A stretch of DNA of 32,000 nt, from assembly GCA_964577685.1 (NCBI GenBank), contig CAZNZT010000006.1:39320-71319 (forward strand), written 5' to 3'. Position numbers and translations under genes: made by a program. Position 1 is the stretch's first letter; each line of letters starts with the position of its first letter. The DNA comes from an uncultured Methanosarcinales archaeon. GTDB taxonomy: Archaea; Nanobdellota; Nanobdellia; Woesearchaeales; JACPBV01. Below, piece after piece: positions 1 through 32,000 of this stretch. The notes beneath the pieces were generated by a model. It was not told where the DNA came from and made no database searches. It worked only from the letters and a program-made list of their open reading frames with translations.

Positions 1-302
1 TTCCTGTTATCGAAATCTATTCTACTGCCACATTCTACTCAATGCTAAGCACAAAAAAGAAAGGAAAGAAAATAGTAAGGATATGTAATTCCCTCCCATG
101 TTATCTAAATGGTTCACTCAACATACTAGAAGAAGCAAAAAGACTGCTAGGCATAGACATTAATCAAACAACAAAAGATGGAAAATTTACCCTAGAAGTT
201 ACTTCATGTATAGGTTGTTGTGATAAAGGTCCTGCTATTATGATTAATGACAAACTAATCACAAACATAACAAAAGAGAAATTAAGAAAACTACTAAAAT
301 GA
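1..302 (+). CDS. NuoE/HoxE/HydC-like [2Fe-2S] thioredoxin-fold subunit, 5'-truncated by the window edge
   Basis: The frame is open from nt 3 (PVIEIYSTATFYSMLSTKKKGKKIVRICNSLPCYLNGS...TSCIGCCDKGPAIMIND). It carries the ATFYSM motif and the C-x4-C ... C-x3-C cysteine pattern of NuoE-type subunits. Its stop overlaps the next start (ATGA at 299-302). Confidence 0.8.
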   Translation, partial: PVIEIYSTATFYSMLSTKKKGKKIVRICNSLPCYLNGSLNILEEAKRLLGIDINQTTKDGKFTLEVTSCIGCCDKGPAIMINDKLITNITKEKLRKLLK

Positions 303-1405
303 AGACACTCCAAAAAACATACCTAAAAGCTTGGAAGAAAGCAAACAAACTAGGACCAGAAAAAACTATTAAGATTCTAAAGAAAAAAGGCCTCACAGGT
401 AGAGGGGGAGCAGATTTCCCAACATGGTTAAAATGGGAACTAACAAGAAAAACAAAGAGCAAAGAAAGGATAATAATCTGCAATGCAGATGAGGGTGAAC
501 CAGGAACATTCAAAGACAAGCTAATACTAGAAAAGAACCCTGAAAATGTGATTGAGGGGATACTAATAGCAGCCTACTGCATTGATTCAAAAGAAGCCTA
601 TATCTACTTAAGAGGGGAATATGCATATCTAAAGGACAAACTAAGAAAAACAATAAAAAAAATTCTCAAAGCTACAAAATCAGACCTTTACCTAGAAATA
701 ATAGAAGGGGCAGGAGCGTACATCTGTGGTGATGAAACAGCTATTATCTCGTCTATTGAAAATAAAAGAGGATATCCAAACTTTAAGCCACCTTACCCTT
801 CACAAAAAGGGCTTTATAACAAACCAACCCTAATAAACAATGTTGAAACATTAGCAAATGTTCCATTAGCACTCATCAACAAAGATTGGAATAACCACTC
901 AAGATTGTTCTCTATCTCTGGTGATGTGCTAAGACCAGGAGTCTATGAATTAAAGATTGGTACTAGGCTAGAGAAAATAGCTAAAAAGGTACAAGCAAAG
1001 AATCCTAAAGCGGTTTATTTTGGTGCCTCAGGGGGGTGTATTTATTATGAGCCAAACCTGATAATAGACCAGAAAAACCTATGTAAAAAAAATGTTATGT
1101 TAGGTACATGTTCTCTGATTTTTGTTAACAAAAAAAGAAACATCCTTGATATAGCAATAAACATAGCGCAATTCTTTACACACGAGTCCTGTGGCAAATG
1201 TACACCATGTAGAGAAGGGAACATCCATATCCTAAATTTATTAGAAAGAATAAAATCAAAAAAAGCAACTGAAAAAGATTTACAACTACTAGAAAAACTA
1301 TCTATTATTATTAAGGATACCTCGTTATGTGGCTTGGGACAAACCTGTACCAACCATATCCTAACAGCCATAAGGCACTTTAAAGAGGATTTCCAAGTAA
1401 AATAA
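299..1405 (+). CDS. NuoF/HydB-like FMN- and NAD(P)H-binding [4Fe-4S] flavoprotein subunit, minimal 368-aa form
   Basis: GRGGADFPT matches the GRGGAGFP FMN/NADH-site motif. ESCGKCTPCREG plus SLCGLGQ matches the N3-type 4Fe-4S motif. The start overlaps the upstream stop, and there are no N- or C-terminal ferredoxin extensions. Confidence 0.85.
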   Translation: MKTLQKTYLKAWKKANKLGPEKTIKILKKKGLTGRGGADFPTWLKWELTRKTKSKERIIICNADEGEPGTFKDKLILEKNPENVIEGILIAAYCIDSKEAYIYLRGEYAYLKDKLRKTIKKILKATKSDLYLEIIEGAGAYICGDETAIISSIENKRGYPNFKPPYPSQKGLYNKPTLINNVETLANVPLALINKDWNNHSRLFSISGDVLRPGVYELKIGTRLEKIAKKVQAKNPKAVYFGASGGCIYYEPNLIIDQKNLCKKNVMLGTCSLIFVNKKRNILDIAINIAQFFTHESCGKCTPCREGNIHILNLLERIKSKKATEKDLQLLEKLSIIIKDTSLCGLGQTCTNHILTAIRHFKEDFQVK

Positions 1406-1407
1406 AA

Positions 1408-3114
1408 ATGATAAAACTAAGGATAAACGGAAAAGAAGTTGAAGCGGAAGAAGGAGAGTACATTATTGATGTTGCTAAAAGGAATGGAATAGACATACCC
1501 CACTTCTGCTATAATGAAAGACTAGAAAGAATAGGTGCTTGTAGACTATGTGTTGTAGAGGTGAAGGGTATGCCTAGGCTACAAGCATCATGTTCTACCC
1601 AAGTTAAAGAGCATATGGAAATCTACACGCATACCCCAAGGGTCCTTGAAGCAAGAAGGGTAAATATGCAACTTTTGCTAGCTAACCATGATTTATATTG
1701 TACATTGTGTAAGGAAAACTTATTGTGTAAACTACAAAGGTATGCCTCTGAGTTAATGATTGAAGACACTCCATTTGAAATCCTACACAGGTATGATGAA
1801 ATAGATAATTCAAGTGTCTCGATACGAAGGGATAACAATAAATGTATATTATGTGAGCAGTGTGTTAGAATCTGTAATGATGTCCAGACCGTCTATGCTA
1901 TTGGGTTAGTAAATAGAGGAATCAATACAAGAGTAAAACCAAGTTTTGAACACACAATGAAAGAAAGTGCTTGTATTAACTGTGGACAATGTGTAGTTGC
2001 ATGCCCAACCGGTGCTCTAACTGAGAAAAGTGACATACAAGGGGTTATTGATGCTTTAAATTCTAATAAGTATCTCATTGCCCAAACCGCTCCCTCAATA
2101 AGAGCAACATTAGGGGAGTGTTTTGGCATACCAGCAGGTACACCTGTAACAGGAAAAATGGTTTCTGCATTAAAACAAATTGGCTTTGATAAGGTATTTG
2201 ACACGAATTTTGGAGCAGACATATGCATAATAGAAGAAGCAACTGAATTTATAAAAAGGATTAAGCAAAAAGGCACATTACCTATGATTACAACATGCTG
2301 CCCAGCATGGATAAAATTTGGTGAACAATTTTACTATGAAGAATTAAACAAAAATATGTCAACATGCAGAAGTCCCCAGGCTATATTGGCTTCTTTAGTA
2401 AAAACATACTATGCAAAAAAAATCAATAAGAATCCAGAAGACATTATTCTTGTAGATATCATGCCTTGCACAGCAAAAAAATATGAAATTTTAAGACCAG
2501 AATTCAAAGGTGAAGCAGATTTTGTATTAACGACTGTTGAACTTGCCAAGCTATTGAAACAGCTCAATGTTGATTTTGTGAATCTGCCCCACACTGAATT
2601 TGATGATCCCCTTGGGTTTAGTACAGGGGCAGGAGACATTTTTGGGCATACAGGAGGGGTTATGGAAGCTGCTCTGAGAACAGTAGCTGATTGGCTTAGT
2701 GGAGAAGACCTTAAAGAGATTGACTATAAAGAGATAAGGGGGATGGAGGAAGTTAAAGAAGCAGAAATTGATATCGCTGGAATGAGCATAAGAATATGTG
2801 TAGTGCATACAATGGGAGCAGCACGAAAATTGCTAGAACAAATAAAAGCTGGAAAAAGCCCATATCACTTTATAGAAATAATGGCATGCTATGGTGGCTG
2901 TATTGGAGGAGGTGGCCAACCACCACCACACAACAAAGAAAGGCTGGCAAAGAGAATAAAGGCCTTAATAAATGTTGATGAAAGAAAAAAAATAAGAAAA
3001 TCCCATAAGAATCCAGCTGCCCTAAAGATATATGCAGAATATCTCGGAGAACCGGGTTCAAAAAAGGCACACAGGTTATTACACACAACCTATTCTAAAA
3101 AGAGTTATGTCTAA
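1408..3114 (+). CDS. hydA: [FeFe]-hydrogenase catalytic subunit, M3-type (N-terminal 2Fe-2S, His-ligated 4Fe-4S, 2x 4Fe-4S, then the H-domain)
   Basis: All three H-cluster motifs are present: TTCCPAW (L1), MPCTAKKYE (L2) and EIMACYGGCIGGGGQP (L3). The N-terminus has CYNERLERIGACRLCVV, HDLYCTLCKENLLC, CILCEQCVRIC and CINCGQCVVACP. The start lies 3 nt after the upstream stop. Confidence 0.92.
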   Translation: MIKLRINGKEVEAEEGEYIIDVAKRNGIDIPHFCYNERLERIGACRLCVVEVKGMPRLQASCSTQVKEHMEIYTHTPRVLEARRVNMQLLLANHDLYCTLCKENLLCKLQRYASELMIEDTPFEILHRYDEIDNSSVSIRRDNNKCILCEQCVRICNDVQTVYAIGLVNRGINTRVKPSFEHTMKESACINCGQCVVACPTGALTEKSDIQGVIDALNSNKYLIAQTAPSIRATLGECFGIPAGTPVTGKMVSALKQIGFDKVFDTNFGADICIIEEATEFIKRIKQKGTLPMITTCCPAWIKFGEQFYYEELNKNMSTCRSPQAILASLVKTYYAKKINKNPEDIILVDIMPCTAKKYEILRPEFKGEADFVLTTVELAKLLKQLNVDFVNLPHTEFDDPLGFSTGAGDIFGHTGGVMEAALRTVADWLSGEDLKEIDYKEIRGMEEVKEAEIDIAGMSIRICVVHTMGAARKLLEQIKAGKSPYHFIEIMACYGGCIGGGGQPPPHNKERLAKRIKALINVDERKKIRKSHKNPAALKIYAEYLGEPGSKKAHRLLHTTYSKKSYV

Positions 3115-3191: not shown

Positions 3192-4199
3192 ATGATAAGA
3201 GTAGCAATTAATGGTTTTGGAAGAATAGGAAGGCTTGTGCTAAAGGCAGGAATAAACGATAAAAAGATAAAATTTGTAGCAATAAATGACTTAACAGACC
3301 CTGGCACATTAGCACACTTGCTCAGATGGGACTCAGTCCATGGAAAATTTCCGGGCACGATAAAAGCAAAAAAGGATTCAATCATAGTAAATGGACAGGA
3401 GATAAAAATAACAGCAGAAAAAAATCCTGAAAAATTGCCTTGGAAAAAATTAAAAGTAGATATTGTAATAGAATGCACAGGAAAATTCAGAAAATATGAT
3501 GATTGCGTACTACATCTAAAAGCAGGAGCTAGGAAAGTACTGCTTTCAGCTCCACCAAAAGGCGATAAGCCAATAAAACAGATTGTTATGGGTGTAAACC
3601 ATGAGACATATGAAGGAGAAGACATTGTATCAAATGCTTCCTGCACTACAAACTGCTTTGCACCGATGGCAAAAATAATAAATGATAATTACGGGATAAT
3701 TGATGGGGTGATGACAACAATCCATAGCTATACCAACGACCAAAGAATTCTTGATGGGCCACACAAAGACCTCAGAAGAGCAAGGGCAGCAGCCCTAAAC
3801 ATTGTCCCAACCTCTACAGGAGCAGCAAAAGCAATAGGAGAGGTAATACCTGAACTAAAGGGAAAAGTTATAGGGTCAGCAATAAGGGTACCAACACCAG
3901 ATGGTTCACTATGTCATTTTGTAGCAGAGCTAAAAGGAAAAATAGACAAGGACATAACAGAAGAAGCAAATGCTTTATTCAAAAAAATGGCTAGAACAAA
4001 ATACAAGGGAATTATTGAATATTCAAATGAAGCATTAGTATCAACAGATGTTATTGGTAATCCGCACTCATGCCTCTTTGACTCCCAACTAACAACCTCT
4101 GTAGGAGATAACCTTATTGTGGTTGGTTGGTATGACAATGAGTGGGGCTACTCCAACAGAATGATAGATGTAATAAGGCTAATGGCAAAGTATATTTAA
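3192..4199 (+). CDS. gap: Glyceraldehyde-3-phosphate dehydrogenase, class I (bacterial/eukaryotic type)
   Basis: The N-terminus is INGFGRIGR, the active site is SNASCTTNC, and WYDNEWGYS lies near the C-terminus. Confidence 0.93.
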   Translation: MIRVAINGFGRIGRLVLKAGINDKKIKFVAINDLTDPGTLAHLLRWDSVHGKFPGTIKAKKDSIIVNGQEIKITAEKNPEKLPWKKLKVDIVIECTGKFRKYDDCVLHLKAGARKVLLSAPPKGDKPIKQIVMGVNHETYEGEDIVSNASCTTNCFAPMAKIINDNYGIIDGVMTTIHSYTNDQRILDGPHKDLRRARAAALNIVPTSTGAAKAIGEVIPELKGKVIGSAIRVPTPDGSLCHFVAELKGKIDKDITEEANALFKKMARTKYKGIIEYSNEALVSTDVIGNPHSCLFDSQLTTSVGDNLIVVGWYDNEWGYSNRMIDVIRLMAKYI

Positions 4200-4226: not shown

Positions 4227-6215
4227 ATGATTGAGTACATAGTACTAATAATAAGCCTATTATCAATCCTGTTTGCTATCCAAAAGGCTAGAAGTATAAT
4301 CAAAAAAAGTCCTGGAACAAAAAAAATGGAGGAGTTTTCTGAAACCATACATAAAGGGGCAATGACTTTCCTAGAAAAAAAATACTTCATACTAAGTATA
4401 TTTGTAATTATTGTTTCTGTAATCTTATATTATTTTATAAACAAAATTATAATGATAGCATTCATAATAGGAGCATTCTTTTCAGCATTAGCAGGAAACA
4501 TAGGCATGAGGATAGCAACAAAAGCAAATACAAGAACAACAGAAGCCTCAAAGAAGTCAATAAACGATGGTTTAATGGTTGCATTTTCATCAGGAGCAGT
4601 AATGGGACTAAGTGTTGTCGGTCTAGGCCTTCTTGGAATAACCCTCCTTTACATGGTGTTCAAAGACCCAGAAGTGATTTATGGTTTTGGTTTTGGTGCT
4701 TCATCAATAGCACTATTTGCAAGAGTAGGTGGTGGAATCTACACAAAAGCAGCAGATGTTGGTGCAGACCTTGTAGGAAAAGTAGAAGAAGGGATACCGG
4801 AAGATGATCCAAGAAACCCCGCGGTAATAGCAGACAATGTAGGGGATAATGTTGGTGATGTTGCAGGAATGGGTGCTGATTTATTTGAAAGCTATGTTGA
4901 TTCAATAATATCAACAATGGTTATAGGAACAACAATGATAGCTGCTACAAGAATAGTAGATGGATATATATTATTGCCGTTGATGATAGCAGCCGTAGGG
5001 ATTATCTCATCAATCATAGGAACAAAATTTGTTAAAGCAAAGAAAGGAAACACCCAACATGCACTAGACAAAGGCATATGGTCTGCTTCAGTCATAGCAG
5101 CAATCTTATCATTTATAGTCATAAAGCTTGTAATTCCAGGTCAACTTGGATTTAATATCTTCTACTCAATGTTATCAGGCCTATTAATAGGAATAATAAT
5201 CGGCATCTCAACAGAATACTATACATCAAATACAAAAAATCCAACAAGAAAAGTTGCAGAAGCATCAAAAACTGGGGCAGGAACAAATCTGATAGAAGGG
5301 TTGTCAGTGGGAATGATATCAACAACAATACCAATAATAGCAATATGCAGTTCTGTATTAATATCATACTATCTATCAGGCCTTTATGGGATTGCAATAT
5401 CAGCTGTAGGCATGCTTTCAACATTGGGAATAACACTTGCTACTGACTGTTATGGTCCAGTAGCAGATAATGCAGCTGGAATCGCAGAGATGGCAAAACT
5501 CGGAAAGAAGACAAGAAAGAGGTGTGAAAGCCTAGATGCTGTAGGAAACACAACAGCAGCTATAGGTAAAGGCTTTGCAATAGGTTCAGCAGGACTAACA
5601 GCCCTAGCACTCTTTGTTAGCTTTACACAGGTCGCATCAGAGCTAACAGGAAAAACAATTATCATTGATATAACAACACCAAAGGTAATTGTTGGGCTAC
5701 TCATCGGAGGCCTTCTACCATTTATCTTTTCTGCATTCACCCTAAGAGCTGTTGCAAGAGCAGCAGAAAAGGTAGTAATAGAAGTAAGAAGGCAATTCAA
5801 AAGCAGAAAAGGCCTAATAGAAGGAAAAGAAAAACCAGATTACAAAAGATGCATCTCAATAGTAACAGGAGCAGCGATAAAAAAGATGCTCTTACCCAGT
5901 ATCATCACAATAGCTACCCCTATCCTAGTGGGCTTAATAATAGGAATAGAGGCTCTAGGAGGGCTAATAGCTGGAGTAACAATAACAGGGCTTATACTTG
6001 CAATATCCATGGCAAATTCTGGTGCAACATGGGATAATGCAAAGAAATATATTGAAGAAGGAAAATTCGGAGGAAAGGGAAGCCCAGCACACAAGGCATC
6101 TGTCATTGGTGACACCCTTGGGGACCCAATAAAAGATACCACAGGTCCCTCACTAAATATTCTAATAAAGCTGGTAAGCATAGTTGCGCTTGTTTTCTTA
6201 CCATTGTTCCTATAA
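4227..6215 (+). CDS. hppA: Membrane-integral ion-translocating pyrophosphatase, K+-dependent-type signature
   Basis: A 662-aa polytopic protein with the motifs GGGIYTKAADVGADLVGK, DNVGDNVGD and DAVGNTTAAIGKGFAIGSA. The Ala in GNTTAA is the position associated with K+-dependent enzymes. An AGGTGA Shine-Dalgarno-like site precedes the ATG. Confidence 0.92.
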   Translation: MIEYIVLIISLLSILFAIQKARSIIKKSPGTKKMEEFSETIHKGAMTFLEKKYFILSIFVIIVSVILYYFINKIIMIAFIIGAFFSALAGNIGMRIATKANTRTTEASKKSINDGLMVAFSSGAVMGLSVVGLGLLGITLLYMVFKDPEVIYGFGFGASSIALFARVGGGIYTKAADVGADLVGKVEEGIPEDDPRNPAVIADNVGDNVGDVAGMGADLFESYVDSIISTMVIGTTMIAATRIVDGYILLPLMIAAVGIISSIIGTKFVKAKKGNTQHALDKGIWSASVIAAILSFIVIKLVIPGQLGFNIFYSMLSGLLIGIIIGISTEYYTSNTKNPTRKVAEASKTGAGTNLIEGLSVGMISTTIPIIAICSSVLISYYLSGLYGIAISAVGMLSTLGITLATDCYGPVADNAAGIAEMAKLGKKTRKRCESLDAVGNTTAAIGKGFAIGSAGLTALALFVSFTQVASELTGKTIIIDITTPKVIVGLLIGGLLPFIFSAFTLRAVARAAEKVVIEVRRQFKSRKGLIEGKEKPDYKRCISIVTGAAIKKMLLPSIITIATPILVGLIIGIEALGGLIAGVTITGLILAISMANSGATWDNAKKYIEEGKFGGKGSPAHKASVIGDTLGDPIKDTTGPSLNILIKLVSIVALVFLPLFL

Positions 6216-12688: not shown

Positions 12689-13042
12689 ATGAAAAGAAAA
12701 CTGATAAAAAAGATAAAAGCAAAAAGAGAAGCGAAAAAACTTATCCCAAAGCTATTTGAAAAAGCCAGATTAGCATATAAAAAGGGTAACAAAAAACTTT
12801 ACAAAACATATTCCAAAAAAATAAAATATCTATACATGAAGTACAAAATAAAATTACCAAAAATCCTCAAAAGACAAATCTGCAAACACTGTGATTCTGT
12901 ATTTCTTTATGGCAAGAACTGTAGAGTAAGAACAAGAGAGCATAAACTAATAATCTACTGCCTTGAATGTAAAAGGTTTACCAGAATTCCACTAAAAGCA
13001 AAAAAAAACAATAAAAACCAGAGTAATATTACTACTATCTAA
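12689..13042 (+). CDS. rnp4: RNase P protein component 4 (Rpr2/RPP21 family, archaeal/eukaryal)
   Basis: An N-terminal basic helical region (AKKLIPKLFEKARLAYKKGNKKLYKTYSKKIKYLYMKYKIKLPK) is followed by a zinc ribbon (CKHCDSVFLYGKNCRVRTREHKLIIYCLECKRFTRIP). Confidence 0.85.
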   Translation: MKRKLIKKIKAKREAKKLIPKLFEKARLAYKKGNKKLYKTYSKKIKYLYMKYKIKLPKILKRQICKHCDSVFLYGKNCRVRTREHKLIIYCLECKRFTRIPLKAKKNNKNQSNITTI

Positions 13043-15549: not shown

Positions 15550-16019
15550 TGAACTTCTTAAATTACAGCATAATATCCATAATCTCCTACTCTGGACTAT
15601 TTCTCGGTTTCCTTTTAGCGATAATAGCCAAAGAAGAGATAAAGCAAGGAGAAAGATATTTCATATTATTAAAAAAAACAATCCTAGCCCTTATATTTAT
15701 CTTCTTATTGATATTAAAAACTAAAGACCATCTAACAACCACCTTAATCCTTGCTTTTGTTATTTTATATATGATAAAAACAAAAAAAGAATTTAATGAA
15801 CTCCCATATATCTATATAATCCTAGGTCTTGTTTTATACACATCATCAAAAAACCTAGAACTTTTAATGATTGAATCATCACTAATATTTATATTAGGGT
15901 TCCCAGTAGGAACACTACTGACAAAAAAAGACAAAAAAAGAACACTAAAGGAGATTATAAAAAACATTGGACTTGTGATTAGTGCGATAATTCCATTTTT
16001 TTTCAAAACAATTTCTTAA
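15546..16019 (+). CDS. Hypothetical polytopic membrane protein (157 aa)
   Basis: It has four to five hydrophobic segments, and its start overlaps the rpiB stop (ATGA). Confidence 0.55.
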   Translation: MMNFLNYSIISIISYSGLFLGFLLAIIAKEEIKQGERYFILLKKTILALIFIFLLILKTKDHLTTTLILAFVILYMIKTKKEFNELPYIYIILGLVLYTSSKNLELLMIESSLIFILGFPVGTLLTKKDKKRTLKEIIKNIGLVISAIIPFFFKTIS

Positions 16020-17058
16020 CCTTGATTGGGCTAACCATAAGCATAGCCAAAAAAAGATAGATATAAGGGTAAGCAGAAAAAGGAACCTTAATAAGATATA
16101 TGAAAGGAACCACAAGACCATTGATAGTTATGGGCATACCAGCATAATCGCCAGTAAACTCCATCACATTATATCTTGCTAATCTCAAAACCCCAGCAAA
16201 TATAAACAAAGCAAACATAATAACAGCAAGCCTTGTTTGTATCAAGCTAAAACCAAATATTGCTGGAGCAACTCCAAAGCTGATGGTATCAGCTAAACTA
16301 TCAAGTTGTTTTCCAAAGTCTCCCTTTCGCCTTATTAATCTCGCTACCTTCCCATCTAAATAATCAAACAACACGGCAATCAATAACATAAAAATTGAGA
16401 GATAATATCTACTATTTATCGAAAAAATAATAGAAAACATTCCAGCCAAGATGTTAAAAAAAGTAAAAAAATCTGGCAATTTTATCAGTTTCAAGAATCT
16501 AATCTCCTCAAACTCACTCCTATACCTAGTAATTCTTACCCCTGACCTAAAAAGCGAAATAACAAAACTCAACCCCACAAGAAGCAAAGATATTGTAATC
16601 AAAACATAATCAAGCCTCTCGAGTAAGACAAAAAACAATGTTAAGAGCTGTACAAAAACAGAAATCCTATCAACAAAATTGGACCTGAAAACTATTTTTG
16701 GCTTTCTTATAAGTATTAACAAAGCACCAATTACTATCAACAAATCTTTAACCAAAAAAACACCTGTAACCCAGAAAGGAAAAAGCCCTTTAAGAGACAA
16801 AGAGATAGCAGTTAAATTAACAAGCAATTTATCAGCAAAGGGATCAAAGATAGAGCGAAACTGACTAACTATTTTGTATTTTTTCGCAATAAATCCATCC
16901 AAGAAGGAAACAATCGCAGTTAACACAAAAAGGTAAAGAGCCAAATTATTTCTTGAACTTAATATTAACAAAAAGACAATAAAGCTAAGGAAGATTCTAA
17001 AAAATATCAAACCAATACCATTACTAACCCTCCTAACAAAATGTCTCGGCTTAATCAT
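16003..17058 (-). CDS. Tandem two-domain CDP-alcohol phosphatidyltransferase: N-terminal PgsA-like domain fused to a C-terminal PssA-like (archaetidylserine synthase-type) domain
   Basis: Two copies of the D-G-x2-A-R-x8-G-x3-D-x3-D motif. The first is DGFIAKKYKIVSQFRSIFDPFAD (variant with R->K and G->R). The second is DGKVARLIRRKGDFGKQLDSLAD (canonical, followed by SFGVAPA). The gene lies directly downstream of psd. Confidence 0.8.
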   Translation of the reverse strand: MIKPRHFVRRVSNGIGLIFFRIFLSFIVFLLILSSRNNLALYLFVLTAIVSFLDGFIAKKYKIVSQFRSIFDPFADKLLVNLTAISLSLKGLFPFWVTGVFLVKDLLIVIGALLILIRKPKIVFRSNFVDRISVFVQLLTLFFVLLERLDYVLITISLLLVGLSFVISLFRSGVRITRYRSEFEEIRFLKLIKLPDFFTFFNILAGMFSIIFSINSRYYLSIFMLLIAVLFDYLDGKVARLIRRKGDFGKQLDSLADTISFGVAPAIFGFSLIQTRLAVIMFALFIFAGVLRLARYNVMEFTGDYAGMPITINGLVVPFIYLIKVPFSAYPYIYLFLAMLMVSPIKVKKLF

Positions 17059-17069
17059 GGTAACTAATA

Positions 17070-17690
17070 TTAATATTCTGCCAATATAGTCTCACCTGCT
17101 CTAACAACATCTCCCTTCTTAACTAATATTTTCACCCTAGAGGGGAGTATCAAACTTACTTGGCTTCCTAATATAATCTTTCCTATCCTCTCACCTTTAT
17201 TAAGCTTCTGTTTCTCTTTAACAAAACACACTATTTTTCTTGCAAAAAAACCTGCTATCTGTATTACCTTTATTTTACCAACCTCTGTTTTCATTAATAT
17301 CTCGTTACACTCATTAAGAAGACTTTTTTTTCTGCTTGCAATAAAGAATTTTCCTTCATTATACTTAACATTTAACACTACACCACTCATTGGAGCCCTG
17401 TTGACATGAACATCAAATGGCCCCATAAAAATAGAAATGATATATCCGTCCTTTGCAACATCTCTAAAAAATACATTAATCCTGCCAAAAAGCCCTTTTC
17501 TTATAGTTCCCTCCTTTCTCTTAATTCGCTTTAACATAATAACCTTCCCATCAGCAGGGGAAACAATATTTCTTCCTTTAGAGATAATCCTCTCTGGATC
17601 CCTTAGAAAAATAAATCTATAAAAAAATAGGAATAAAAAAACAAAAACCAAAAATACGGAAAATAAAACCTCTATAAAAGACATTTTCAT
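17070..17690 (-). CDS. psd: Phosphatidyl/archaetidylserine decarboxylase proenzyme (short archaeal/bacterial Asd type)
   Basis: N-terminal TM, SPADGKV, DVHVNRAP, QIAGFFARKI, and a GS self-cleavage-type site in ILGSQVSL. Confidence 0.82.
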   Translation of the reverse strand: MKMSFIEVLFSVFLVFVFLFLFFYRFIFLRDPERIISKGRNIVSPADGKVIMLKRIKRKEGTIRKGLFGRINVFFRDVAKDGYIISIFMGPFDVHVNRAPMSGVVLNVKYNEGKFFIASRKKSLLNECNEILMKTEVGKIKVIQIAGFFARKIVCFVKEKQKLNKGERIGKIILGSQVSLILPSRVKILVKKGDVVRAGETILAEY

Positions 17691-17729
17691 CTAAGCCTGC
17701 TTCCTAGTTTTTGATTTTAACATTTATTA

Positions 17730-18266
17730 TTACCATTTAGTATCCCTTATCCCAAGATAGTAAGCCAAATGATTAATAAAAATATGTCCAAAAAAACTCA
17801 AAATAACAATCACCAAGACCATTTCAAATGTCAATCTAAAAACAAAAGAAACAAACAGAAGAGCCCCAAAAACAAAATCAAGCTGGTCAAAAGGCCTGAA
17901 GGGTTCTCCTGGTTTTATCCTGATTCTTCTTTTAAAAAAGCTTTCTATAAGGTCTCCTATTACAGCCCCAAATCCCATCAAAAAACCAAAAACAAACCAA
18001 TTTGAATAATCAAAAAAGCTTAGTTTCAAAAAAAATTTAAAGTTAAGTAATACCCTCTGCAGATATGCAATAACAACAGAGAAGATAATGCCAAAAATAA
18101 AACCCCTCCATGTCTTATTTCTACCAAATATCCCCTTGCCAAAAAGCCTCCTGTTCCTGTCAATCGGCACAGCCAGAAAATTAAACCATTTTTTTACTAT
18201 AACTGGAGCCATATTAGCAAAATATGCAGGCATCATAAAATAAAAACACTTGGCTATGAAAAGCAT
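17730..18266 (-). CDS. carS: CDP-archaeol synthase (CarS, DUF46 family)
   Basis: MPAYFANMAPV, GRNKTWRGF, GDLIESFFKRR and FDQLDF closely match the remembered A. fulgidus CarS pattern (GKTWRGF, GDL..SF.KRR, DQL). Confidence 0.85.
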   Translation of the reverse strand: MLFIAKCFYFMMPAYFANMAPVIVKKWFNFLAVPIDRNRRLFGKGIFGRNKTWRGFIFGIIFSVVIAYLQRVLLNFKFFLKLSFFDYSNWFVFGFLMGFGAVIGDLIESFFKRRIRIKPGEPFRPFDQLDFVFGALLFVSFVFRLTFEMVLVIVILSFFGHIFINHLAYYLGIRDTKW

Positions 18267-18271
18267 CTAAA

Positions 18272-18919
18272 TCACCAAAAAGGTATCCTCGTTGCTTTTA
18301 TGAAGCTAAGAAGCTTCCCAACAGACCCAAAAAAATGATTGCTCTTTATAGTAGTTTTTCTTCTTTTTATAGCGTCCCTCAATTCACCATCAAAGACAGT
18401 ATAGGCCCTACCAAGTTCAAAAGAAAAATGTGCATCCGAACCAGCTACCTTAGCCATTTTATTCTCTTCAGCAAATCTTAGTGCCTTTTTATTAGTAAAA
18501 TAAAAAAGCCTTCCATTATTACATTCAACAGCATCTAACAAACCTAGGTCCACACCATTCTTCTTAAACCTAAGCCTTGGAAAGATATCAAAAGGATGGG
18601 CTATAATCGCTATTCCGCCTTGTCTGTGTATCTTCTCAACAGCAGAAAAGAAATCCCATTCCTTTACATCTTCAGTTAAATAAAGCCCAAGAAGATGTCC
18701 TCTATTGGTATACACCTCGCTACCAACAATTACCTCAAAGTCCTTATCTTTATTGAGCTTAGAAACTTTTATAGCTCCTTTTATAGTGTTATGATCAGTT
18801 ATAGCAATCCCATCAAGTCCAACTTTCTTCTTTGCTATCTTTAACAAAACCTCTGGCTTAAGACTAGCACAAGGAGAATAGTTGGTATGAACATGCAGGT
18901 CATATTTCATAATAACCAC
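18272..18919 (-). CDS. PHP-domain metal-dependent phosphoesterase
   Basis: YDLHVHTNYSPCAS, the conserved DG.A.TDHN, IAHP and GSDAH His/Asp motifs of the PHP fold. Confidence 0.8.
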   Translation of the reverse strand: MVIMKYDLHVHTNYSPCASLKPEVLLKIAKKKVGLDGIAITDHNTIKGAIKVSKLNKDKDFEVIVGSEVYTNRGHLLGLYLTEDVKEWDFFSAVEKIHRQGGIAIIAHPFDIFPRLRFKKNGVDLGLLDAVECNNGRLFYFTNKKALRFAEENKMAKVAGSDAHFSFELGRAYTVFDGELRDAIKRRKTTIKSNHFFGSVGKLLSFIKATRIPFW

Positions 18920-18922
18920 TAC

Positions 18923-19243
18923 TTACCCAAAGAGCTTCTTCATCATTTCGTCCAGTAACCGCTTACCTTCTGACAACAGCCTTTCCCCTTTCTTTGTTAT
19001 ATAGTAATACTTCCTTCTAGGCCCACCCTTATTAGAAGAATCCATTTTAGACCTAACATATCTTTCTAACTCAAGTTTGTATAGAACAATATAAGATGTT
19101 ATTGTCGCAGAATTAAAGCCAAAATTCTTTTGTATCTCCCTCTTAAGTTCATACGCATATCTAGGTTTCATTTTTAATAACTTCAAGATGTACAACCATA
19201 ACACTTCCTTTGTTATTTTATTCCTTAATCTTTCAATAGGCAT
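18923..19243 (-). CDS. PadR-family winged-helix transcriptional regulator
   Basis: YAYELKREIQ...SYIVLYKLELERYVRS...RRKYYYITKKGERLL is the typical PadR pattern. It is the first gene of the minus-strand lipid operon. Confidence 0.8.
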   Translation of the reverse strand: MPIERLRNKITKEVLWLYILKLLKMKPRYAYELKREIQKNFGFNSATITSYIVLYKLELERYVRSKMDSSNKGGPRRKYYYITKKGERLLSEGKRLLDEMMKKLFG

Positions 19244-19262
19244 AACTACACTAAAAAAACAG

Positions 19263-19276
19263 AATATTTAAATATT
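19263..19276. promoter_or_regulatory. Perfect 14-bp AT palindrome AATATTTAAATATT in the padR/SDR divergent intergenic region (bidirectional TATA-like element and/or operator)
   Basis: Read directly. It is self-complementary and lies about 20 nt upstream of padR and about 35-45 nt upstream of the SDR start. Confidence 0.35.
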
Positions 19277-19310
19277 TATCTATTACTACTATTTTATCAT
19301 CATAAAATAG

Positions 19311-20066
19311 TTGGTACCTATGAACAAAGAACTAAAAGGAAAGGTAGCAATCATAACAGGAGCAAGTAGAGGCATAGGAAAAGCAATAGCAATAGAGCTA
19401 GCAAAAAAAGGAGCAGACCTTGCAATCTTAGCAAGGACGAAAGAAAAACTTGAAAAACTAAAGAACCTTATTAAAAGAAGATACAATGTAAATGTTATTG
19501 CGTTGGTTGCAGATGTATCAAATAGTAAAGCTATAGAAAAACAATTTAGACTAGTTAAGGAAAAGCTTGGAAGAATAGATATTCTTGTAAACAATGCAGG
19601 GGTTAATGTAAGAAAAAATATCCATAAAATAAAAGAAGAAGAATGGGACTATGAGATAAACACAAACTTAAAAGGCACATTCATATGCTCAAAGGTAGCA
19701 TCAAAATATATGAAAAAACAAAGAAGAGGATGGATTATTAACATAGCTTCATTCAAAGTAAAAGAACCAGCTACATCCGCAGGTTATACTGCCTCAAAAA
19801 CAGGGATAATAGGACTAACAAGATGCCTAGCAAGAGACCTTATTCCGTATGGCATATATGTAAATGCCATTTCCCCCGGACCAATAGAAACTGACATGGC
19901 AAAACAATGGTCAGAAGAAGACAGAGAAAGATACATAGACAAAACAGCAATAAAAAGACTTGGAAAACCAGAAGAAATAGCTTCAGTAGTTTCGTTTCTA
20001 GTAAGCAAAGGAGCAAGCTATATAGTTGGAGCAAACATAGATGTTAATGGAGGAATCCTGTGGTAA
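19311..20066 (+). CDS. Short-chain dehydrogenase/reductase (FabG-like 3-oxoacyl reductase family)
   Basis: TGASRGIGKAIA (TGxxxGxG), NNAG and YTASK (YxxxK). The true start may be the ATG at 19320 (MNKEL). Confidence 0.85.
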   Translation: MVPMNKELKGKVAIITGASRGIGKAIAIELAKKGADLAILARTKEKLEKLKNLIKRRYNVNVIALVADVSNSKAIEKQFRLVKEKLGRIDILVNNAGVNVRKNIHKIKEEEWDYEINTNLKGTFICSKVASKYMKKQRRGWIINIASFKVKEPATSAGYTASKTGIIGLTRCLARDLIPYGIYVNAISPGPIETDMAKQWSEEDRERYIDKTAIKRLGKPEEIASVVSFLVSKGASYIVGANIDVNGGILW

Positions 20067-20082
20067 AAACTCAGAATAAAAA

Positions 20083-20640
20083 ATGAACACTCCAAATAAA
20101 CTAACACTTCTAAGACTTCTATCAGTTCCATTTATAATACTTTTAATGTATATAAATAATATAACAGCAGCCTATTCTGCCTTTGCCCTCTTCATACTCT
20201 CAATGATAACAGACATCATTGATGGAAGAATAGCAAAAAGAAAGAAGAAGGAAACACTATTTGGAAAATTTCTAGATCCAGTAACAGACAAGATTTTAAT
20301 CCTCTCAATATTCTTTGTTTTTGTTGATAAAGGATTCATACCAATGTGGCTAGTCCTGATATTGTTAGCAAGAGAACTCACCATCTCTGGACTAAGAAGC
20401 ACAGCATCTGCTAGAGGTAAAATAATAGGAGCAAACTGGATGGGAAAAACAAAGGCATTTAGTCAAACACTTATTATTTCAATAACCCTATTACTAAATG
20501 CTCTAAACTATTCAATAAACATAGAAAAAGTAATACCGAAGATAACCACGCCATTAACATTAATCATGGTGACAATATCAGTAATCTTTCTATTCAATTT
20601 TATGTATCAGAATAGAAAACTCATTCTTAAAGATACATAG
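20083..20640 (+). CDS. CDP-alcohol phosphatidyltransferase, PgsA-like (archaetidylglycerophosphate or -inositol-phosphate synthase type)
   Basis: N-terminal NKLTLLRL and DGRIAKRKKKETLFGKFLDPVTDK motif, in a 185-aa polytopic protein. Confidence 0.82.
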   Translation: MNTPNKLTLLRLLSVPFIILLMYINNITAAYSAFALFILSMITDIIDGRIAKRKKKETLFGKFLDPVTDKILILSIFFVFVDKGFIPMWLVLILLARELTISGLRSTASARGKIIGANWMGKTKAFSQTLIISITLLLNALNYSINIEKVIPKITTPLTLIMVTISVIFLFNFMYQNRKLILKDT

Positions 20641-21483
20641 CTATGTCTCTTTTATAAACTTATAAATTTCCCTAAAGGACCTCTCTTTACCTTTGTCTAT
20701 AATAAAAACATGATAAGCGTTTGGTATCCAAACAATTTTCTTCTTTCTTGACCTTGTATGTGTGGCTATATAATCAACACTCCTATTGCTCAAACCAAAG
20801 TCAGCAGTAGATTGCATAATTAGTATAGGAACAGTGATGTCCTTCATATTGATTATCCCTTCTCTAATAACCTTTAAGACATGCTTAACGCATCTCAGTG
20901 GAATCCTATCATAAGTCACCCTCTCGCTTATCAGCTTAGTACCTAATGCACTGTGGTACCATTTCTTTTGGTAATCCTTAAAAAAAGAAAGAAAAGGAAA
21001 GACAATCTTAAAAAGCCTCTCCTTCTTAAAGAATACAGGGGTAGCCATAGATATAACACCATCTACCTCAAACCGACTAGCAATTATAATAGCAAGACTT
21101 CCACCAAAAGAATCTCCTCCTACATATATCTTATTCACATCTTTTCTAAGCCTCTTATAAGCCCTTTCTGCACATCTTATCCAATCTCTATATCCCTTAC
21201 TAGCTAGGTGCTCAGGTGTCCTACCATGCCCATCTATAAGAGGAACATAAACAGTAATGCCTCGGTCAGCAAGATATTTACTTAGATATTTATAATCACA
21301 GGGAGAACTTGTAAAGCCATGAAAAAACAAAACTCCTGTTTTTCCCCTCTTATAATAGATTGGTTCAGCACCACGCATAATCTTCACGGGTTTTAACTTC
21401 TTTCTCCAGCCGAAAAAGATTTTTATTCCCTTGTATAAGGTCACAAATGCAAGAAACGAAAAAATATACGTCAGCATAAACAA
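20641..21483 (-). CDS. Alpha/beta-fold hydrolase (esterase/lipase type) with an N-terminal TM anchor
   Basis: HGFTSSP oxyanion motif and GDSFGG nucleophile elbow (GxSxG). It is convergent with the PgsA-like gene with no gap. Confidence 0.75.
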   Translation of the reverse strand: MFMLTYIFSFLAFVTLYKGIKIFFGWRKKLKPVKIMRGAEPIYYKRGKTGVLFFHGFTSSPCDYKYLSKYLADRGITVYVPLIDGHGRTPEHLASKGYRDWIRCAERAYKRLRKDVNKIYVGGDSFGGSLAIIIASRFEVDGVISMATPVFFKKERLFKIVFPFLSFFKDYQKKWYHSALGTKLISERVTYDRIPLRCVKHVLKVIREGIINMKDITVPILIMQSTADFGLSNRSVDYIATHTRSRKKKIVWIPNAYHVFIIDKGKERSFREIYKFIKET

Positions 21484-21577
21484 GGATTGTTATTAAAACT
21501 ATATAAAAGTTTTTTTAAAAGCCCTAAACAAAACACGAAAGCTATTTAAACAAACAGGTATCCAAGTTAAAAGACAA

Positions 21578-22525
21578 ATGGGAAAAACAAAAAACAGAAA
21601 TATCTGGATCATATTAAAAATATCAATAAGCCTGATATTCTTATTATTTGTACTTGTAAAGATAGGTTACAAACAAATAATAAATACCTTCCTAAAGATA
21701 AACCCGCTTATCTTAATTCCAACAATTATTATTCTTCTGCTTAACCTCATACTTGCGAATATAAGACTTCTTATCCTCCTAAGAGTGATAAAACCCAAAT
21801 TCCCTTTTCTAAGATTATTCAAACATTATCTGATAAGCTGGGCTATAAGTATGTTTACACCAGCAAAACTTGGCCTCTTTTCAATAGTCTATTTCTTAAA
21901 AAAAGAAAAGATTAAACTCGGAGAAAGCGCCCTTGTCTTTATTATTGACAGAATAATTGCTCTAGTCACATTGCTTATTTTTTCCTCATTTAGCTTATTC
22001 ATACTATTTAAGATAAAAGAAGACATAGTAGCATATATAATAATGCTTGCTATATTCGCACTATCACTAGCGGTTGGTTCTTACATTATACTAAGTGATT
22101 TCGGAAAAAAACTGATTAAGAGGTATATACTCAAAAAATACTCAAAAAGCTTTGAAGGCTTTTCAAGAGCCCAATTGATTATTTCAAAAAACAAAAAATC
22201 AATACTAAACAATTTTGTGGCAAATGTAATTCAATGGAGCACAAATGCATTACAGGTCCATATCGTCTTCTTGGGCTTCCACCAAAAAATAGGCTTCTTT
22301 CATGTTCTAACAATAAAATCTTTACTGAACATAATATCATTTATTCCTATAAGCCTAAGTGGGCTTGGTATAAGAGAGGCATCTGCAATATTCTTTTTTT
22401 CAAAACTCGGAATTGAAGAAAAAATAACAGCAACAACATTTTTCTTTTTGTTGATTATACTATATCTACTTGCATTTGCCATATTGATAGCCTACCCCTA
22501 TAAAAACAGAAAGACAAAAGATTAG
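21578..22525 (+). CDS. UPF0104 / lysylphosphatidylglycerol-synthase-TM-region-like (flippase-like) membrane protein
   Basis: A 315-aa polytopic protein with a basic N-terminus and the C-terminal GLGIREA motif remembered from this family. Confidence 0.6.
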   Translation: MGKTKNRNIWIILKISISLIFLLFVLVKIGYKQIINTFLKINPLILIPTIIILLLNLILANIRLLILLRVIKPKFPFLRLFKHYLISWAISMFTPAKLGLFSIVYFLKKEKIKLGESALVFIIDRIIALVTLLIFSSFSLFILFKIKEDIVAYIIMLAIFALSLAVGSYIILSDFGKKLIKRYILKKYSKSFEGFSRAQLIISKNKKSILNNFVANVIQWSTNALQVHIVFLGFHQKIGFFHVLTIKSLLNIISFIPISLSGLGIREASAIFFFSKLGIEEKITATTFFFLLIILYLLAFAILIAYPYKNRKTKD

Positions 22526-22537
22526 ACTCAAAATAAA

Positions 22538-23053
22538 ATGAAAGAAAAAATAATAACAATACCAAATATAATAACACTATGTAGATTAATACTTATTCCT
22601 TTCTTTGTAATATCAATTATCTACAATAGAGTAGAATTCTCAATCCTATTGTTTACTGGAATAGCGCTCAGCGACACTCTTGACGGCTTATCTGCAAGGA
22701 TAATAAAACAAAAAACAAAAAAAGGAGCTATATTTGATAGCCTAGTAGATTGGCTGGTTTTATTTTCGGTTTTGACATTAGCTGTATTCAAAAAAGAGTA
22801 TATTAGCACAAAGATAGCAATAGCTTTAATGGTCCCAGCAGTAATAATATTTATAACAAAAGTTATTTATATAAAAAAGCAAAAAACAAAAACTCCATCC
22901 ATTATAGGAAAAGTAATGGTAGCTTTTGCATATGTGACTGTTATTGCAATCTTGATAGAATTTAAATACAAAAATATCTTCTTAATAACGACGACAATCC
23001 TAGTATATGCAACAACAATAAACTATGTAAGAAAAGATATAGGCATATTCTAA
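22538..23053 (+). CDS. CDP-alcohol phosphatidyltransferase family protein (substrate unknown)
   Basis: PNIITLCRL plus the canonical DGLSARIIKQKTKKGAIFDSLVD motif, 12 nt downstream of the UPF0104 gene. Confidence 0.8.
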   Translation: MKEKIITIPNIITLCRLILIPFFVISIIYNRVEFSILLFTGIALSDTLDGLSARIIKQKTKKGAIFDSLVDWLVLFSVLTLAVFKKEYISTKIAIALMVPAVIIFITKVIYIKKQKTKTPSIIGKVMVAFAYVTVIAILIEFKYKNIFLITTTILVYATTINYVRKDIGIF

Positions 23054-31259: not shown

Positions 31260-31298
31260 CAACTAATAATAATGGATAGCACCCAAGCTCTCAGAAAA

Positions 31299-31310
31299 TT
31301 TTATAAATAA
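31299..31310 (+). promoter_or_regulatory. TATA-like box TTTTATAAATAA upstream of the tRNA gene
   Basis: It is preceded by the purine-rich CAGAAAA (BRE-like). It lies about 40-50 nt upstream of tRNA position 1, which implies a leader of about 15-20 nt. Confidence 0.35.
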
Positions 31311-31348: not shown

Positions 31349-31484
31349 GCCCCTGTAGCTTAGTAGGTAGAGCGTACGAGCCCATGGGGCTACGAAGCTG
31401 TTAGCCTACTAGCAGGCACCGTAAATAATTTCTAAACGGAAGGTCGGCAGTTCGAGAGGAATACCGAATATCTGCCCAGGGGCG
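31349..31484 (+). tRNA. tRNA-Asn (anticodon GTT) interrupted by four putative BHB/BHL introns; no encoded CCA
   Basis: Acceptor stem GCCCCTG/CAGGGGC, D arm GCTT-AGTAGGTA-GAGC and T stem GGCAG/CTGCC. The exons are 31349-31378, 31397-31403, 31418-31424, 31442-31456 and 31471-31484. Joined, they give a 73-nt cloverleaf with anticodon arm TACGG-CTGTTAA-CCGTA, variable loop AGGTC and discriminator G. Confidence 0.8.
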
Positions 31485-31503
31485 TTTATTCTTTTATTTT
31501 TTT
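31485..31503 (+). terminator. Oligo-T tracts (TTTATTCTTTTATTTTTTT) immediately after the tRNA
   Basis: Archaeal RNA polymerase typically terminates at T-runs, and this tract starts right after the discriminator base. Confidence 0.45.
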
Positions 31504-32000
31504 GGATGGCTGCGTACCGTTCACCCTGTGGATGTTAAGAGGGGGCCGTTCACTTAAGGATGTTTATAAAATGATTTCTTTATGGGGAAGCGTTTTGAAA
31601 AACGAACAGTCAAACGAGCAGTCAAGGTTGCAGAATCCGTACCCTTAAGCAAAATATTCACTTTAAAGAACAAGTTTTACTGTTGTAACGCCTTTAGTAA
31701 GAGATTCTTCCATTCTGGTTTTTGGTTTATGCCTGCTTTTTGTGCTGGGGTTGCTTTTAGTGTCATGTGGTTTTTGATGAAGTTGTAGTATGTTTGGAAG
31801 TTTTGCGCAAACTGTTTCTGATTACCTTCAAATCCTTTCATTACCTTGTCTCGTTGCCTGAACGTTCCATGAAATCGTTCTAGTTTGTTGTTGCTACAGT
31901 CTTTATTTCGTAGGCTAACGTATCTTTTATGCGGCTTAGGATTCTTATAAGTAGCAAACTCTTTTCTTACAGCTTTTTCATAGCTAAAAGCTCCATCTGT
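31504..32000 (-). mobile_element. Partial insertion sequence (IS6-like); the left boundary is approximate
   Basis: GC content jumps sharply right after the tRNA terminator (about 50% in 31501-31560 against about 20-40% elsewhere, hand count). The segment contains the transposase 3' end. The terminal inverted repeat cannot be defined without the other end. Confidence 0.5.
31677..32000 (-). CDS. DDE transposase, C-terminal 107 aa (IS6/IS240-like); the N-terminus lies beyond the window end
   Basis: Minus-strand translation gives TDGAFSYEKAVRKEF...HKRYVSLRNKDCSNNKLERFHGTFRQRDKVMKGFEGNQKQFAQNFQTYYNFIKNHMTLKATPAQKAGI...*. This matches the TD..(S/A)Y.KA(I/V)...H...NN..E..HG..K.R...GF....A......YNF pattern of IS6-type transposases. 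It is not in the ORF track because there is no start codon in the window. Confidence 0.7.
   Translation of the reverse strand, partial: TDGAFSYEKAVRKEFATYKNPKPHKRYVSLRNKDCSNNKLERFHGTFRQRDKVMKGFEGNQKQFAQNFQTYYNFIKNHMTLKATPAQKAGINQKPEWKNLLLKALQQ

Follow-up and report, generated by a model that had tools for sequence, protein, structure and literature searches.

The tRNA-Asn gene and its four introns

Close to the end of a window of 32,000 nucleotides (contig CAZNZT010000006.1, positions 39,320 to 71,319, assembly GCA_964577685.1), a term that denotes the whole stretch of DNA analysed here, lies a 136-nt gene for tRNA-Asn(GTT) that consists of five exons, two of them micro-exons of 7 nt, and four short introns making up 46% of its length. 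Positions are given in window numbering, with the gene at 31349-31484 (+), and the loci of relatives are designated by L and a number. Exons and introns alternate as GCCCCTGTAGCTTAGTAGGTAGAGCGTACG / AGCCCATGGGGCTACGAA / GCTGTTA / GCCTACTAGCAGGC / ACCGTAA / ATAATTTCTAAACGGAA / GGTCGGCAGTTCGAG / AGGAATACCGAATA / TCTGCCCAGGGGCG (Table 1), and since the five exons are colinear on one strand inside 136 nt, the gene is neither split nor permuted. The coordinates, the exon and intron sequences and the 73-nt product given by an earlier, sequence-only reading were reproduced base for base when we re-derived them. Its identification of a tRNA-Asn(GTT) gene with two 7-nt micro-exons and four introns of the bulge-helix-bulge (BHB) or bulge-helix-loop (BHL) kind was borne out by the product, the motif register, orthologues, covariation, synteny and flanking signals.

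In-silico splicing yields a 73-nt RNA that ARAGORN calls tRNA-Asn(gtt), with an acceptor stem of 7 bp, a D stem of 4 bp (one G-U), and anticodon and T stems of 5 bp each. All 21 cloverleaf pairs are standard and all universal nucleotides (U8, A14, G18, G19, A21, U33, G53, U54, U55, C56, A58, C61) are there. Compared with the intron-less tRNA-Asn of L045/L048, which stem from Woesearchaeota metagenome-assembled genomes (MAGs), 70 of the 73 positions are identical; of the three differences, two belong to the compensatory pair 28-42. A hidden Markov model (HMM) built from 18 intron-less tRNA-Asn genes matches the spliced 73-mer over its full length with 72 bits, and the unspliced gene only as two fragments of 26 and 11 bits; exon 1 is aligned by nhmmer to positions 1-30 of the intron-less profile. 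In the unspliced gene, ARAGORN finds no tRNA and the Rfam tRNA model gives no match at gathering score or at E<=10. The sequence-only reading had proposed an ARAGORN run as a check and a poor tRNA score of the 73-mer as grounds for abandoning the gene; the product was recognised, the unspliced DNA was not, and the score is high.

Detectability declines along the intron series. The Rfam tRNA model (RF00005) scores 74.5 and 70.1 bits for the intron-less genes of L030 and L045, 50.2 bits for L055 with two introns and 43.2 bits for L046 with three, and it gives no match for the two genes with four insertions (the window gene and that of L005). A scan of the 32-kb window for acceptor and T-arm signatures returned no further credible tRNA gene.

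The introns were examined for a BHB register, defined as a 4-bp H helix between two 3-nt bulges with a cut after bulge nucleotide 2, at junctions set by the cloverleaf. The motif carries weight only because the junctions follow independently from the cloverleaf; an unconstrained search returns dozens of BHB-like matches per gene, is unspecific and was not counted as evidence. Taken alone, the cloverleaf leaves intron 3 at 43/44 or 44/45, with the same product, and intron 4 at 58/59, 59/60 or 60/61, each with a plausible T loop, and the sole choice that combines a BHB register with the orthologue match is 44/45 and 59/60. All four introns then have a 4/4-bp H helix in register (CGTA/TACG, CTGT/GCAG, CCGT/ACGG and TTCG/CGAA for introns 1 to 4). 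After shuffling of the intron, such a helix arises with a probability of 0.010, 0.035, 0.002 and 0.037, respectively (0.017 at random window positions), and the product over the four introns is ~3e-8. As positive control, 15 of 25 introns of related tRNA-Asn genes carry a 4/4 helix vs 1.7% in the null. Intron 1 is the only one with an inner hairpin (4 bp), next to an outer helix of 2 bp, and intron 3 has the weakest motif, with a single inner base pair and no outer helix. The sequence-only reading had likewise bracketed each intron by a 4-bp helix and 3-nt bulges; its description of intron 1 as a full hBHBh' motif, its ranking of intron 3 as the weakest and the stacking of the intron 4 helix on the 5-bp T stem were all found again.

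Table 1. Coordinates of the tRNA-Asn gene parts and of further features in the window.
Feature	Coordinates (strand)	tRNA position	Description
DPANN-type gene content	299-3114, 4227-6215, 12689-13042, 16003-23053		
B recognition element (BRE)/TATA-like promoter element (putative)	31293..31309 (+)		AGAAAAT TTTATAAATA; 40-56 nt upstream of tRNA position 1
Exon 1	31349..31378 (+)	1-30	Acceptor 5' strand, D arm, G26, anticodon stem 27-30
Intron 1	31379..31396 (+)	30/31	18 nt, strict hBHBh'; H helix 31373-76/31391-94; inner hairpin 31380-83/31387-90; outer helix 31371-72/31398-99; bulges CGA, AAG
Exon 2	31397..31403 (+)	31-37	7-nt micro-exon; G31 and C32-A37, contains anticodon GTT
Intron 2	31404..31417 (+)	37/38 (canonical)	14 nt, BHL type (hBHL); loop CCTACTAGC; H helix 31398-401/31412-15 (one G-U); bulges TAG, GCA
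Exon 3	31418..31424 (+)	38-44	7-nt micro-exon; A38, C39-A43 (anticodon stem 3' strand), A44
Intron 3	31425..31441 (+)	44/45	17 nt, BHL type without outer helix; H helix 31419-22/31436-39; bulges AAA, AAG
Exon 4	31442..31456 (+)	45-59	Variable loop, T stem 5' strand, T loop T54-G59
Intron 4	31457..31470 (+)	59/60 (T loop)	14 nt, hBHL type; H helix 31451-54/31465-68, stacked on T stem 31446-50/31472-76; bulges AGA, TAT
Exon 5	31471..31484 (+)	60-73	T60, T stem 3' strand, acceptor 3' strand, discriminator G73; CCA not encoded
T-rich tract (putative terminator)	31485..31503 (+)		TTTATTCTTTTATTTTTTT; archaeal oligo-T terminator-like signal
Repeated motif	31505-31565 (+)		GTACCGTTCACCCTGTGGATG / GGGCCGTTCACTTAAGGATG
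DDE transposase, IS240/IS6 type	31677-32000 (-)		Running on in L002 to 5513

Introns of related tRNA genes

The comparison set comprised 48 archaeal tRNA-Asn genes sharing the D arm of the window gene. While 27 of them have no intron, about 14 have a single one at 37/38, a few have two and L046 has three, and the window gene and L005 alone carry four insertions. These numbers come from a spliced-alignment dynamic programme that gives an overview and misplaced junctions and merged a micro-exon, so that the multi-intron genes were curated by hand and re-scored.

Introns 1 and 2 recur in L055, L051/L057, L046 and L005. At the intron 1 site the H helix of tRNA-Asn genes reads CGTA/TACG or CGTG/CACG, and CGCA/TGCG at the same position of the tRNA-Ile in L059. 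The intron 2 homologue has a 4/4 helix in L055 (ACCTACATTGCAGAA) and a 3/4 helix in L046 and L051. The intron 3 site is occupied in L046, with the compensated helix CCAT/ATGG, and the tRNA-Ile of L059 has an intron at 43/44 (ATCG/CGAT). At 59/60, an intron with the same helix interrupts the tRNA-Asn of L040 and L044 (TTCG/CGAA) and L064 (TTCG/CGGA) and the tRNA-Ile of L027 (TTCA/TGAA). The relatives thus form a series, in which L046 has introns 1-3 and an intact T loop, L055 and L051 have introns 1 and 2 only, and L030 and L045 have none. Genes missing a given intron carry exactly the junction predicted from the window gene, e.g., TTCGAG/TCTGCC in L046 and ACCGCAA/GGTC in L055, and the uninterrupted TTCGAGT loop is present in L046, L045 and L030. 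The homologous introns lie in independent MAGs and one contig of a JGI metagenome, and a scan of metagenomes with the pattern of exon 1 plus intron 1 gave three loci, namely L055, which was new, a duplicate of L051 and one chance match.

Sequence changes between these genes follow the cloverleaf and the BHB helices. The exons of the window gene and L046 are identical at 69 of 73 positions, the four differences being the compensatory pairs 5-68 and 29-41. In L046, C29-G41 has become T29-A41, so that exon 3 covaries with exon 1, and the intron 3 helix follows the change at position 41 as well (CCGT/ACGG to CCAT/ATGG). Likewise, A28 is replaced by G in L055 and L051, with matching changes at position 42 and in the intron 1 helix (CGTA/TACG to CGTG/CACG). 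With a small comparative sample of 5-6 genes per intron, partly from one clade, compensatory helix changes in introns 1, 3 and 4 point to conservation of the motif rather than of the intron sequence. In an alignment of 19 intron-less and in-silico spliced sequences, 99.5% of the cells are paired and 13 pairs show double changes, and no shuffle or slid register came close to this.

The order radical-SAM gene, M64 peptidase gene, open reading frame (ORF) of 200 aa and tRNA-Asn gene is common to the window, L030, L027, L059 and L064. In L030 the tRNA-Asn gene is intron-less, and by this shared order the window gene is the orthologue of the normal tRNA-Asn gene. Among homologues of the adjacent 200-aa ORF, which led to the syntenic loci L059 and L064, identity does not exceed 51%, and hence none of them points to a close relative of the host organism.

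Insertions at the same four positions are seen in the 159-nt tRNA-Asn gene of L005 (3762-3920; Nanoarchaeota MAG B4T1B8, JADFLA010000017.1), whose third insertion (GCTGTT...CCGTTAAA) resembles a partial duplicate of the anticodon arm. For its third and fourth insertions neither mirror geometry nor a shift of the junctions gave a canonical BHB, and this gene is either spliced by a very relaxed rule or decaying.

Further interrupted genes were observed around the syntenic loci, and the neighbouring tRNA-Ile genes of relatives contain one to three non-canonical introns. In L059 (GCA_053531955.1, JAIYPX010000075.1), the tRNA-Ile(GAT) gene (3840-3969) beside the syntenic tRNA-Asn contains three introns whose positions, 30/31, 37/38 and 43/44, match introns 1-3 of the window gene and whose H helices pair in 4/4, 3/4 and 4/4 bp; ARAGORN recognises its spliced product as tRNA-Ile. 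The triad 30/31, 37/38 and 43-45 therefore recurs in tRNA-Asn (window, L046, L005) and tRNA-Ile (L059). The L059 tRNA-Asn itself (3603-3747) has a 45-nt intron at 37/38 and a 27-nt intron at 53/54, and the tRNA-Asn of L064 (ENA ERZ28564302, ~3490-3615) combines the 59/60 intron with a 31-nt D-loop insertion (21/22, no clear BHB). Rfam at gathering score misses both of these syntenic genes. The tRNA-Asn genes of this group now show six different intron positions, which indicates a rapid turnover of putative introns.

Genomic setting and rival explanations

Upstream and downstream of the gene lie a promoter-like element and an oligo-T tract, both of them sequence readings with a putative function (Table 1). 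A purine-rich stretch followed by TTTATAAA or TTTAAA is likewise found 25-55 nt upstream of tRNA-Asn in L005, L046, L055, L051, L030 and L027. The stretch between the terminator-like tract and the insertion sequence (IS) is relatively GC-rich with a repeated motif and gave no Rfam match. A tRNA-Ile(GAT) gene follows tRNA-Asn after 5-110 nt in L030, L045, L046, L051, L059 and L064, and none was seen at the window locus. The transposase gene lies ~190 nt downstream of the tRNA-Asn gene, and a repeat search for IS ends downstream of tRNA-Asn identified no terminal inverted repeats.

The window is AT-rich (31-37% GC) and encodes an Rpr2/Rpp21 subunit of RNase P, a NuoF-like subunit with an [FeFe]-hydrogenase, a membrane H+-pyrophosphatase, bacterial-type GAPDH and PGK, and a LysM/NlpC-P60 protein, next to a lipid cluster of CDP-archaeol synthase, phosphatidylserine decarboxylase and three CDP-alcohol phosphatidyltransferases. 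This predicted gene content is typical of fermentative DPANN archaea. The D-arm sequence is almost confined to DPANN MAGs (Woesearchaeota, Nanoarchaeota, Nanohaloarchaea, Aenigmarchaeota, Undinarchaeota) and also occurs in MAGs labelled Methanosarcinales. A host among the DPANN archaea related to Woesearchaeota/Nanoarchaeota is thus supported, and the DPANN-like host suspected in the sequence-only reading is backed by the archaeal gene set and by the DPANN relatives.

Judged from these sequence data, the locus very probably represents a functional tRNA-Asn(GUU) gene, and probably the sole one, of an uncultured, very small DPANN archaeon with an AT-rich genome, interrupted by four introns that would be removed by protein enzymes. 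A decaying pseudogene, i.e., a former tRNA-Asn gene that picked up insertions and lost its expression or splicing while a functional copy lies elsewhere, appears improbable. Such decay could be suspected from the IS6/IS240-type transposase located where relatives have tRNA-Ile, which marks a local rearrangement, from L005, where two of the four insertions at the same positions lack a proper BHB, and from the fact that neither Rfam nor ARAGORN recognises the gene. However, the 73 exon positions form a perfect cloverleaf with every universal tRNA nucleotide, they differ from L046 exclusively by compensatory pairs, and neutral decay would not keep a 4/4 BHB helix in register at all four insertions, given the chance estimate above. 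The locus is, moreover, the syntenic counterpart of the relatives' tRNA-Asn, and its promoter-like and terminator-like signals are intact; no stem pairing, universal nucleotide or processing signal has been lost, and exons, BHB motifs and flanks are without defect. An assembly or chimera artefact that created the insertions, for which nothing but the metagenome source speaks, has a negligible chance and is effectively refuted. Two other metagenome assemblies, obtained in different ENA analyses (L001, L002), contain the 136-nt gene and at least 5 kb of surrounding DNA with 100% identity, which excludes an artefact of one assembly, and homologous introns occur in independent MAGs and the JGI metagenome contig.

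It is also highly improbable that fewer than four introns are spliced, with, e.g., intron 3 kept as an enlarged variable region or intron 4 as an enlarged T loop. In one variant, a single intron of 31 nt would comprise intron 2, exon 3 and part of intron 3, and ACGGA would form the 3' side of the anticodon stem. The spliced alignment with its fixed intron penalty indeed preferred a three-intron path for the window gene, and the weak motif of intron 3 fits this view. This three-intron decomposition was nevertheless rejected, as it pairs only 3/5 positions of the anticodon stem (TACGG/ACGGA) vs 5/5 Watson-Crick pairs in the four-intron model, and as exon 3 is conserved and, in L046, changes together with exon 1. 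Orthologues carry the uninterrupted sequences. Transfer RNA-Asn is never a tRNA with a long variable arm, and a T loop of 21 nt would destroy the conserved contacts between T loop and D loop; both forms of retention are thus at odds with established tRNA knowledge. Intron 3 as a long variable arm was rejected on this ground and because its helix is compensated in L046; in the predicted precursor this helix has a pair probability of at least 0.92.

Several observations weigh against a functional gene with four introns. Introns 2, 3 and 4 lack an inner helix and intron 3 also an outer one, so these motifs are relaxed. The third and fourth insertions of L005 reach only 2/4 pairs in BHB register, so that such genes may be able to decay. 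No EndA or RtcB gene was found in the 32-kb window. In the full precursor the H helices of introns 1 and 2 are out-competed (pair probability ~0), and by energies that leave aside proteins and RNA modifications the minimum-energy fold has -54.8 kcal/mol and is dominated by pairing of intron 2 with the D arm. All four BHB cores can be accommodated together with the acceptor stem, 3 bp of the D stem and the T stem without any base being used twice, yet this fold, at -37.4 kcal/mol, is 17 kcal/mol less stable, so that protein binding or refolding must be invoked.

Putative splicing route and known systems

In archaeal tRNA splicing, EndA cuts within the bulges and leaves 2',3'-cyclic phosphate and 5'-OH ends, which RtcB ligates. 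Going beyond the gene anatomy, the BHB register, the comparative conservation and the covariation, which can be read directly, we infer transcription, enzymes and splicing order for the four-intron gene as follows. Transcription from the putative BRE/TATA promoter would give a precursor of ~150-170 nt. RNase P and a 3' nuclease would process its ends, and CCA would be added after transcription, since none is encoded. EndA would cut both 3-nt bulges of the motifs at 30/31, 37/38, 44/45 and 59/60, i.e., eight cuts, and an RtcB-type ligase would join the five exons. As three of the four motifs are relaxed, a broad-specificity EndA, as also expected in the sequence-only reading, would be implied by analogy with the literature. 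The motifs of introns 3 and 4 would form spontaneously in the precursor. That of intron 1 would borrow C25-A28 from the D and anticodon stems, and intron 2 would gain its outer helix, the anticodon stem, only once intron 1 is removed and the intron 3 helix released. Introns 1, 3 and 4 would thus probably leave first, in any order, and intron 2 last, with ligation after each excision.

The predicted precursor ensemble fits parts of this route, as the H helix of intron 3 has a probability of 0.92-0.98 and that of intron 4 of 0.62-0.67, and the hairpin and outer helix of intron 1 form. An obligatory splicing order, as put forward in the sequence-only reading, is only partly upheld. Secondary structure forces no order, because the four H-helix cores can coexist in one fold. 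Some order is nevertheless likely, since intron 2 is without outer helix until intron 1 is gone and since the 7-nt exon 2 would come off as a free fragment if introns 1 and 2 were both cut before ligation. In the three-intron tRNA-Ile of Cyanidioschyzon merolae, reverse transcription PCR showed that the flanking introns are removed before the 37/38 intron (PMC3728597).

A further feature of intron 2 concerns this order. Its loop CCTACTAGC (31404-31417) is complementary to D-arm positions 10-19 (G10-G19; 31358-31367, GCTTAGTAGG), with a duplex energy of -17.0 kcal/mol (RNAduplex) that none of 2000 shuffles equalled. The complementarity is also found in L046 and L055 and, weaker, in L051 and L005, and the 37/38 intron of the three-intron L059 tRNA-Ile provides an independent case (p=0.04). 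It is absent from 12 tRNA-Asn genes that have the 37/38 intron only, and it co-occurs with the 30/31 intron, whose BHB helix borrows C25-N28 from the D and anticodon stems. A tentative option, which we regard as rather doubtful, is that intron 2 acts as a built-in folding guide, whose pairing with the D arm could free the strand needed by intron 1, license the removal of that intron and delay intron 2 to the end. If true, the splicing order would be encoded in the RNA itself and would allow 7-nt exons to be retained.

Reviews and the tRNAscan-SE 2.0 paper put the limit for an archaeal tRNA gene at three introns (PMC4033280, PMC8450103), and our full-text literature search found no four-intron tRNA gene in main texts. 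The same limit in the sequence-only reading fits the reviews up to 2021 and is superseded by a table of Asgard tRNA genes (Valentin-Alvarado et al., 2024; PMC11291895, Supplementary Data 4). There, tRNA-Arg(TCT) and tRNA-Ile2(CAT) of Freyarchaeia are listed with four introns predicted and four observed, and tRNA-Leu(GAG) of Freyarchaeia and tRNA-Trp(CCA) of Atabeyarchaeia-2 with three predicted and four observed. Since these genes are already listed, four introns per tRNA gene are not unprecedented. Four is the known maximum, here with motif-level and comparative support, and as far as the searchable literature shows, a four-intron tRNA gene is new for DPANN.

Atabeyarchaeia and Freyarchaeia, mesophilic and uncultured archaea that have gained tRNA introns on a massive scale, resemble the group studied here in these respects. 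Their four-intron genes, however, belong to another superphylum, appear in the supplementary table only, without analysis of motifs, order or comparative history, and score 59-102 bits in tRNAscan-SE (PMC11291895), whereas the window gene lies under the Rfam tRNA threshold. The genes of Thermoproteales (Pyrobaculum, Thermofilum, Caldivirga; Sugahara et al., 2007-2009; PMC4033280, PMC8450103) likewise have several short introns at canonical and non-canonical positions, each with a strict or relaxed BHB; of introns lying close together one has to leave before the next motif is complete, and simple tRNA finders miss these genes. They belong to hyperthermophilic Crenarchaeota of high GC content, whose EndA is of the (alpha-beta)2 type, whereas the window stems from an AT-rich (33% GC) DPANN-like host, and the window gene differs by its two 7-nt micro-exons and its 46% intron share. 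In C. merolae, the nuclear tRNA-Ile(UAU) has three BHB introns, which interrupt the D arm region, position 37/38 and the T loop, with the splicing order proposed here for the window gene (PMC3728597). That gene is eukaryotic and its splicing is experimentally verified, whereas the window gene is known from sequence alone.

An enzymatic basis for cleavage of relaxed BHL motifs is expected from the broad-specificity EndAs of DPANN, such as the epsilon2 enzyme of ARMAN-2 and the alpha4 type with L3 loop (PMC3239211, PMC5829648), the link of which to the window locus would be by inference. Consistently, EndA variants of DPANN with an extra loop were linked to more tRNA gene disruption, and tRNAs that go unpredicted in DPANN were linked to hidden disrupted genes, so that disrupted tRNA genes not yet identified were predicted (PMC5829648). 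With its four introns and two 7-nt exons, the window gene lies at the known limit for protein-spliced tRNA genes. Eight accurate cuts and four ligations would be needed, probably in a fixed order, and the gene would make a demanding natural substrate for the study of relaxed-BHB recognition and micro-exon retention.

DPANN genomes are often reported without some tRNAs. The window locus suggests that at least some of these "missing" tRNAs are heavily interrupted genes, as had been predicted (PMC5829648), and interrupted genes that are missed affect both completeness estimates and claims of host dependence. In this context, relatives with 0, 1, 2, 3 and 4 introns at a syntenic locus offer a compact set of data from which intron gains in DPANN could be dated. 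A wider reading, likewise rather doubtful, is that the locus is part of a tRNA-intron expansion in Woesearchaeota-like DPANN, with the recurrent triad 30/31, 37/38 and 43-45 shared between isoacceptors, which, if true, would point to intron transposition or to hot spots defined by the endonuclease.

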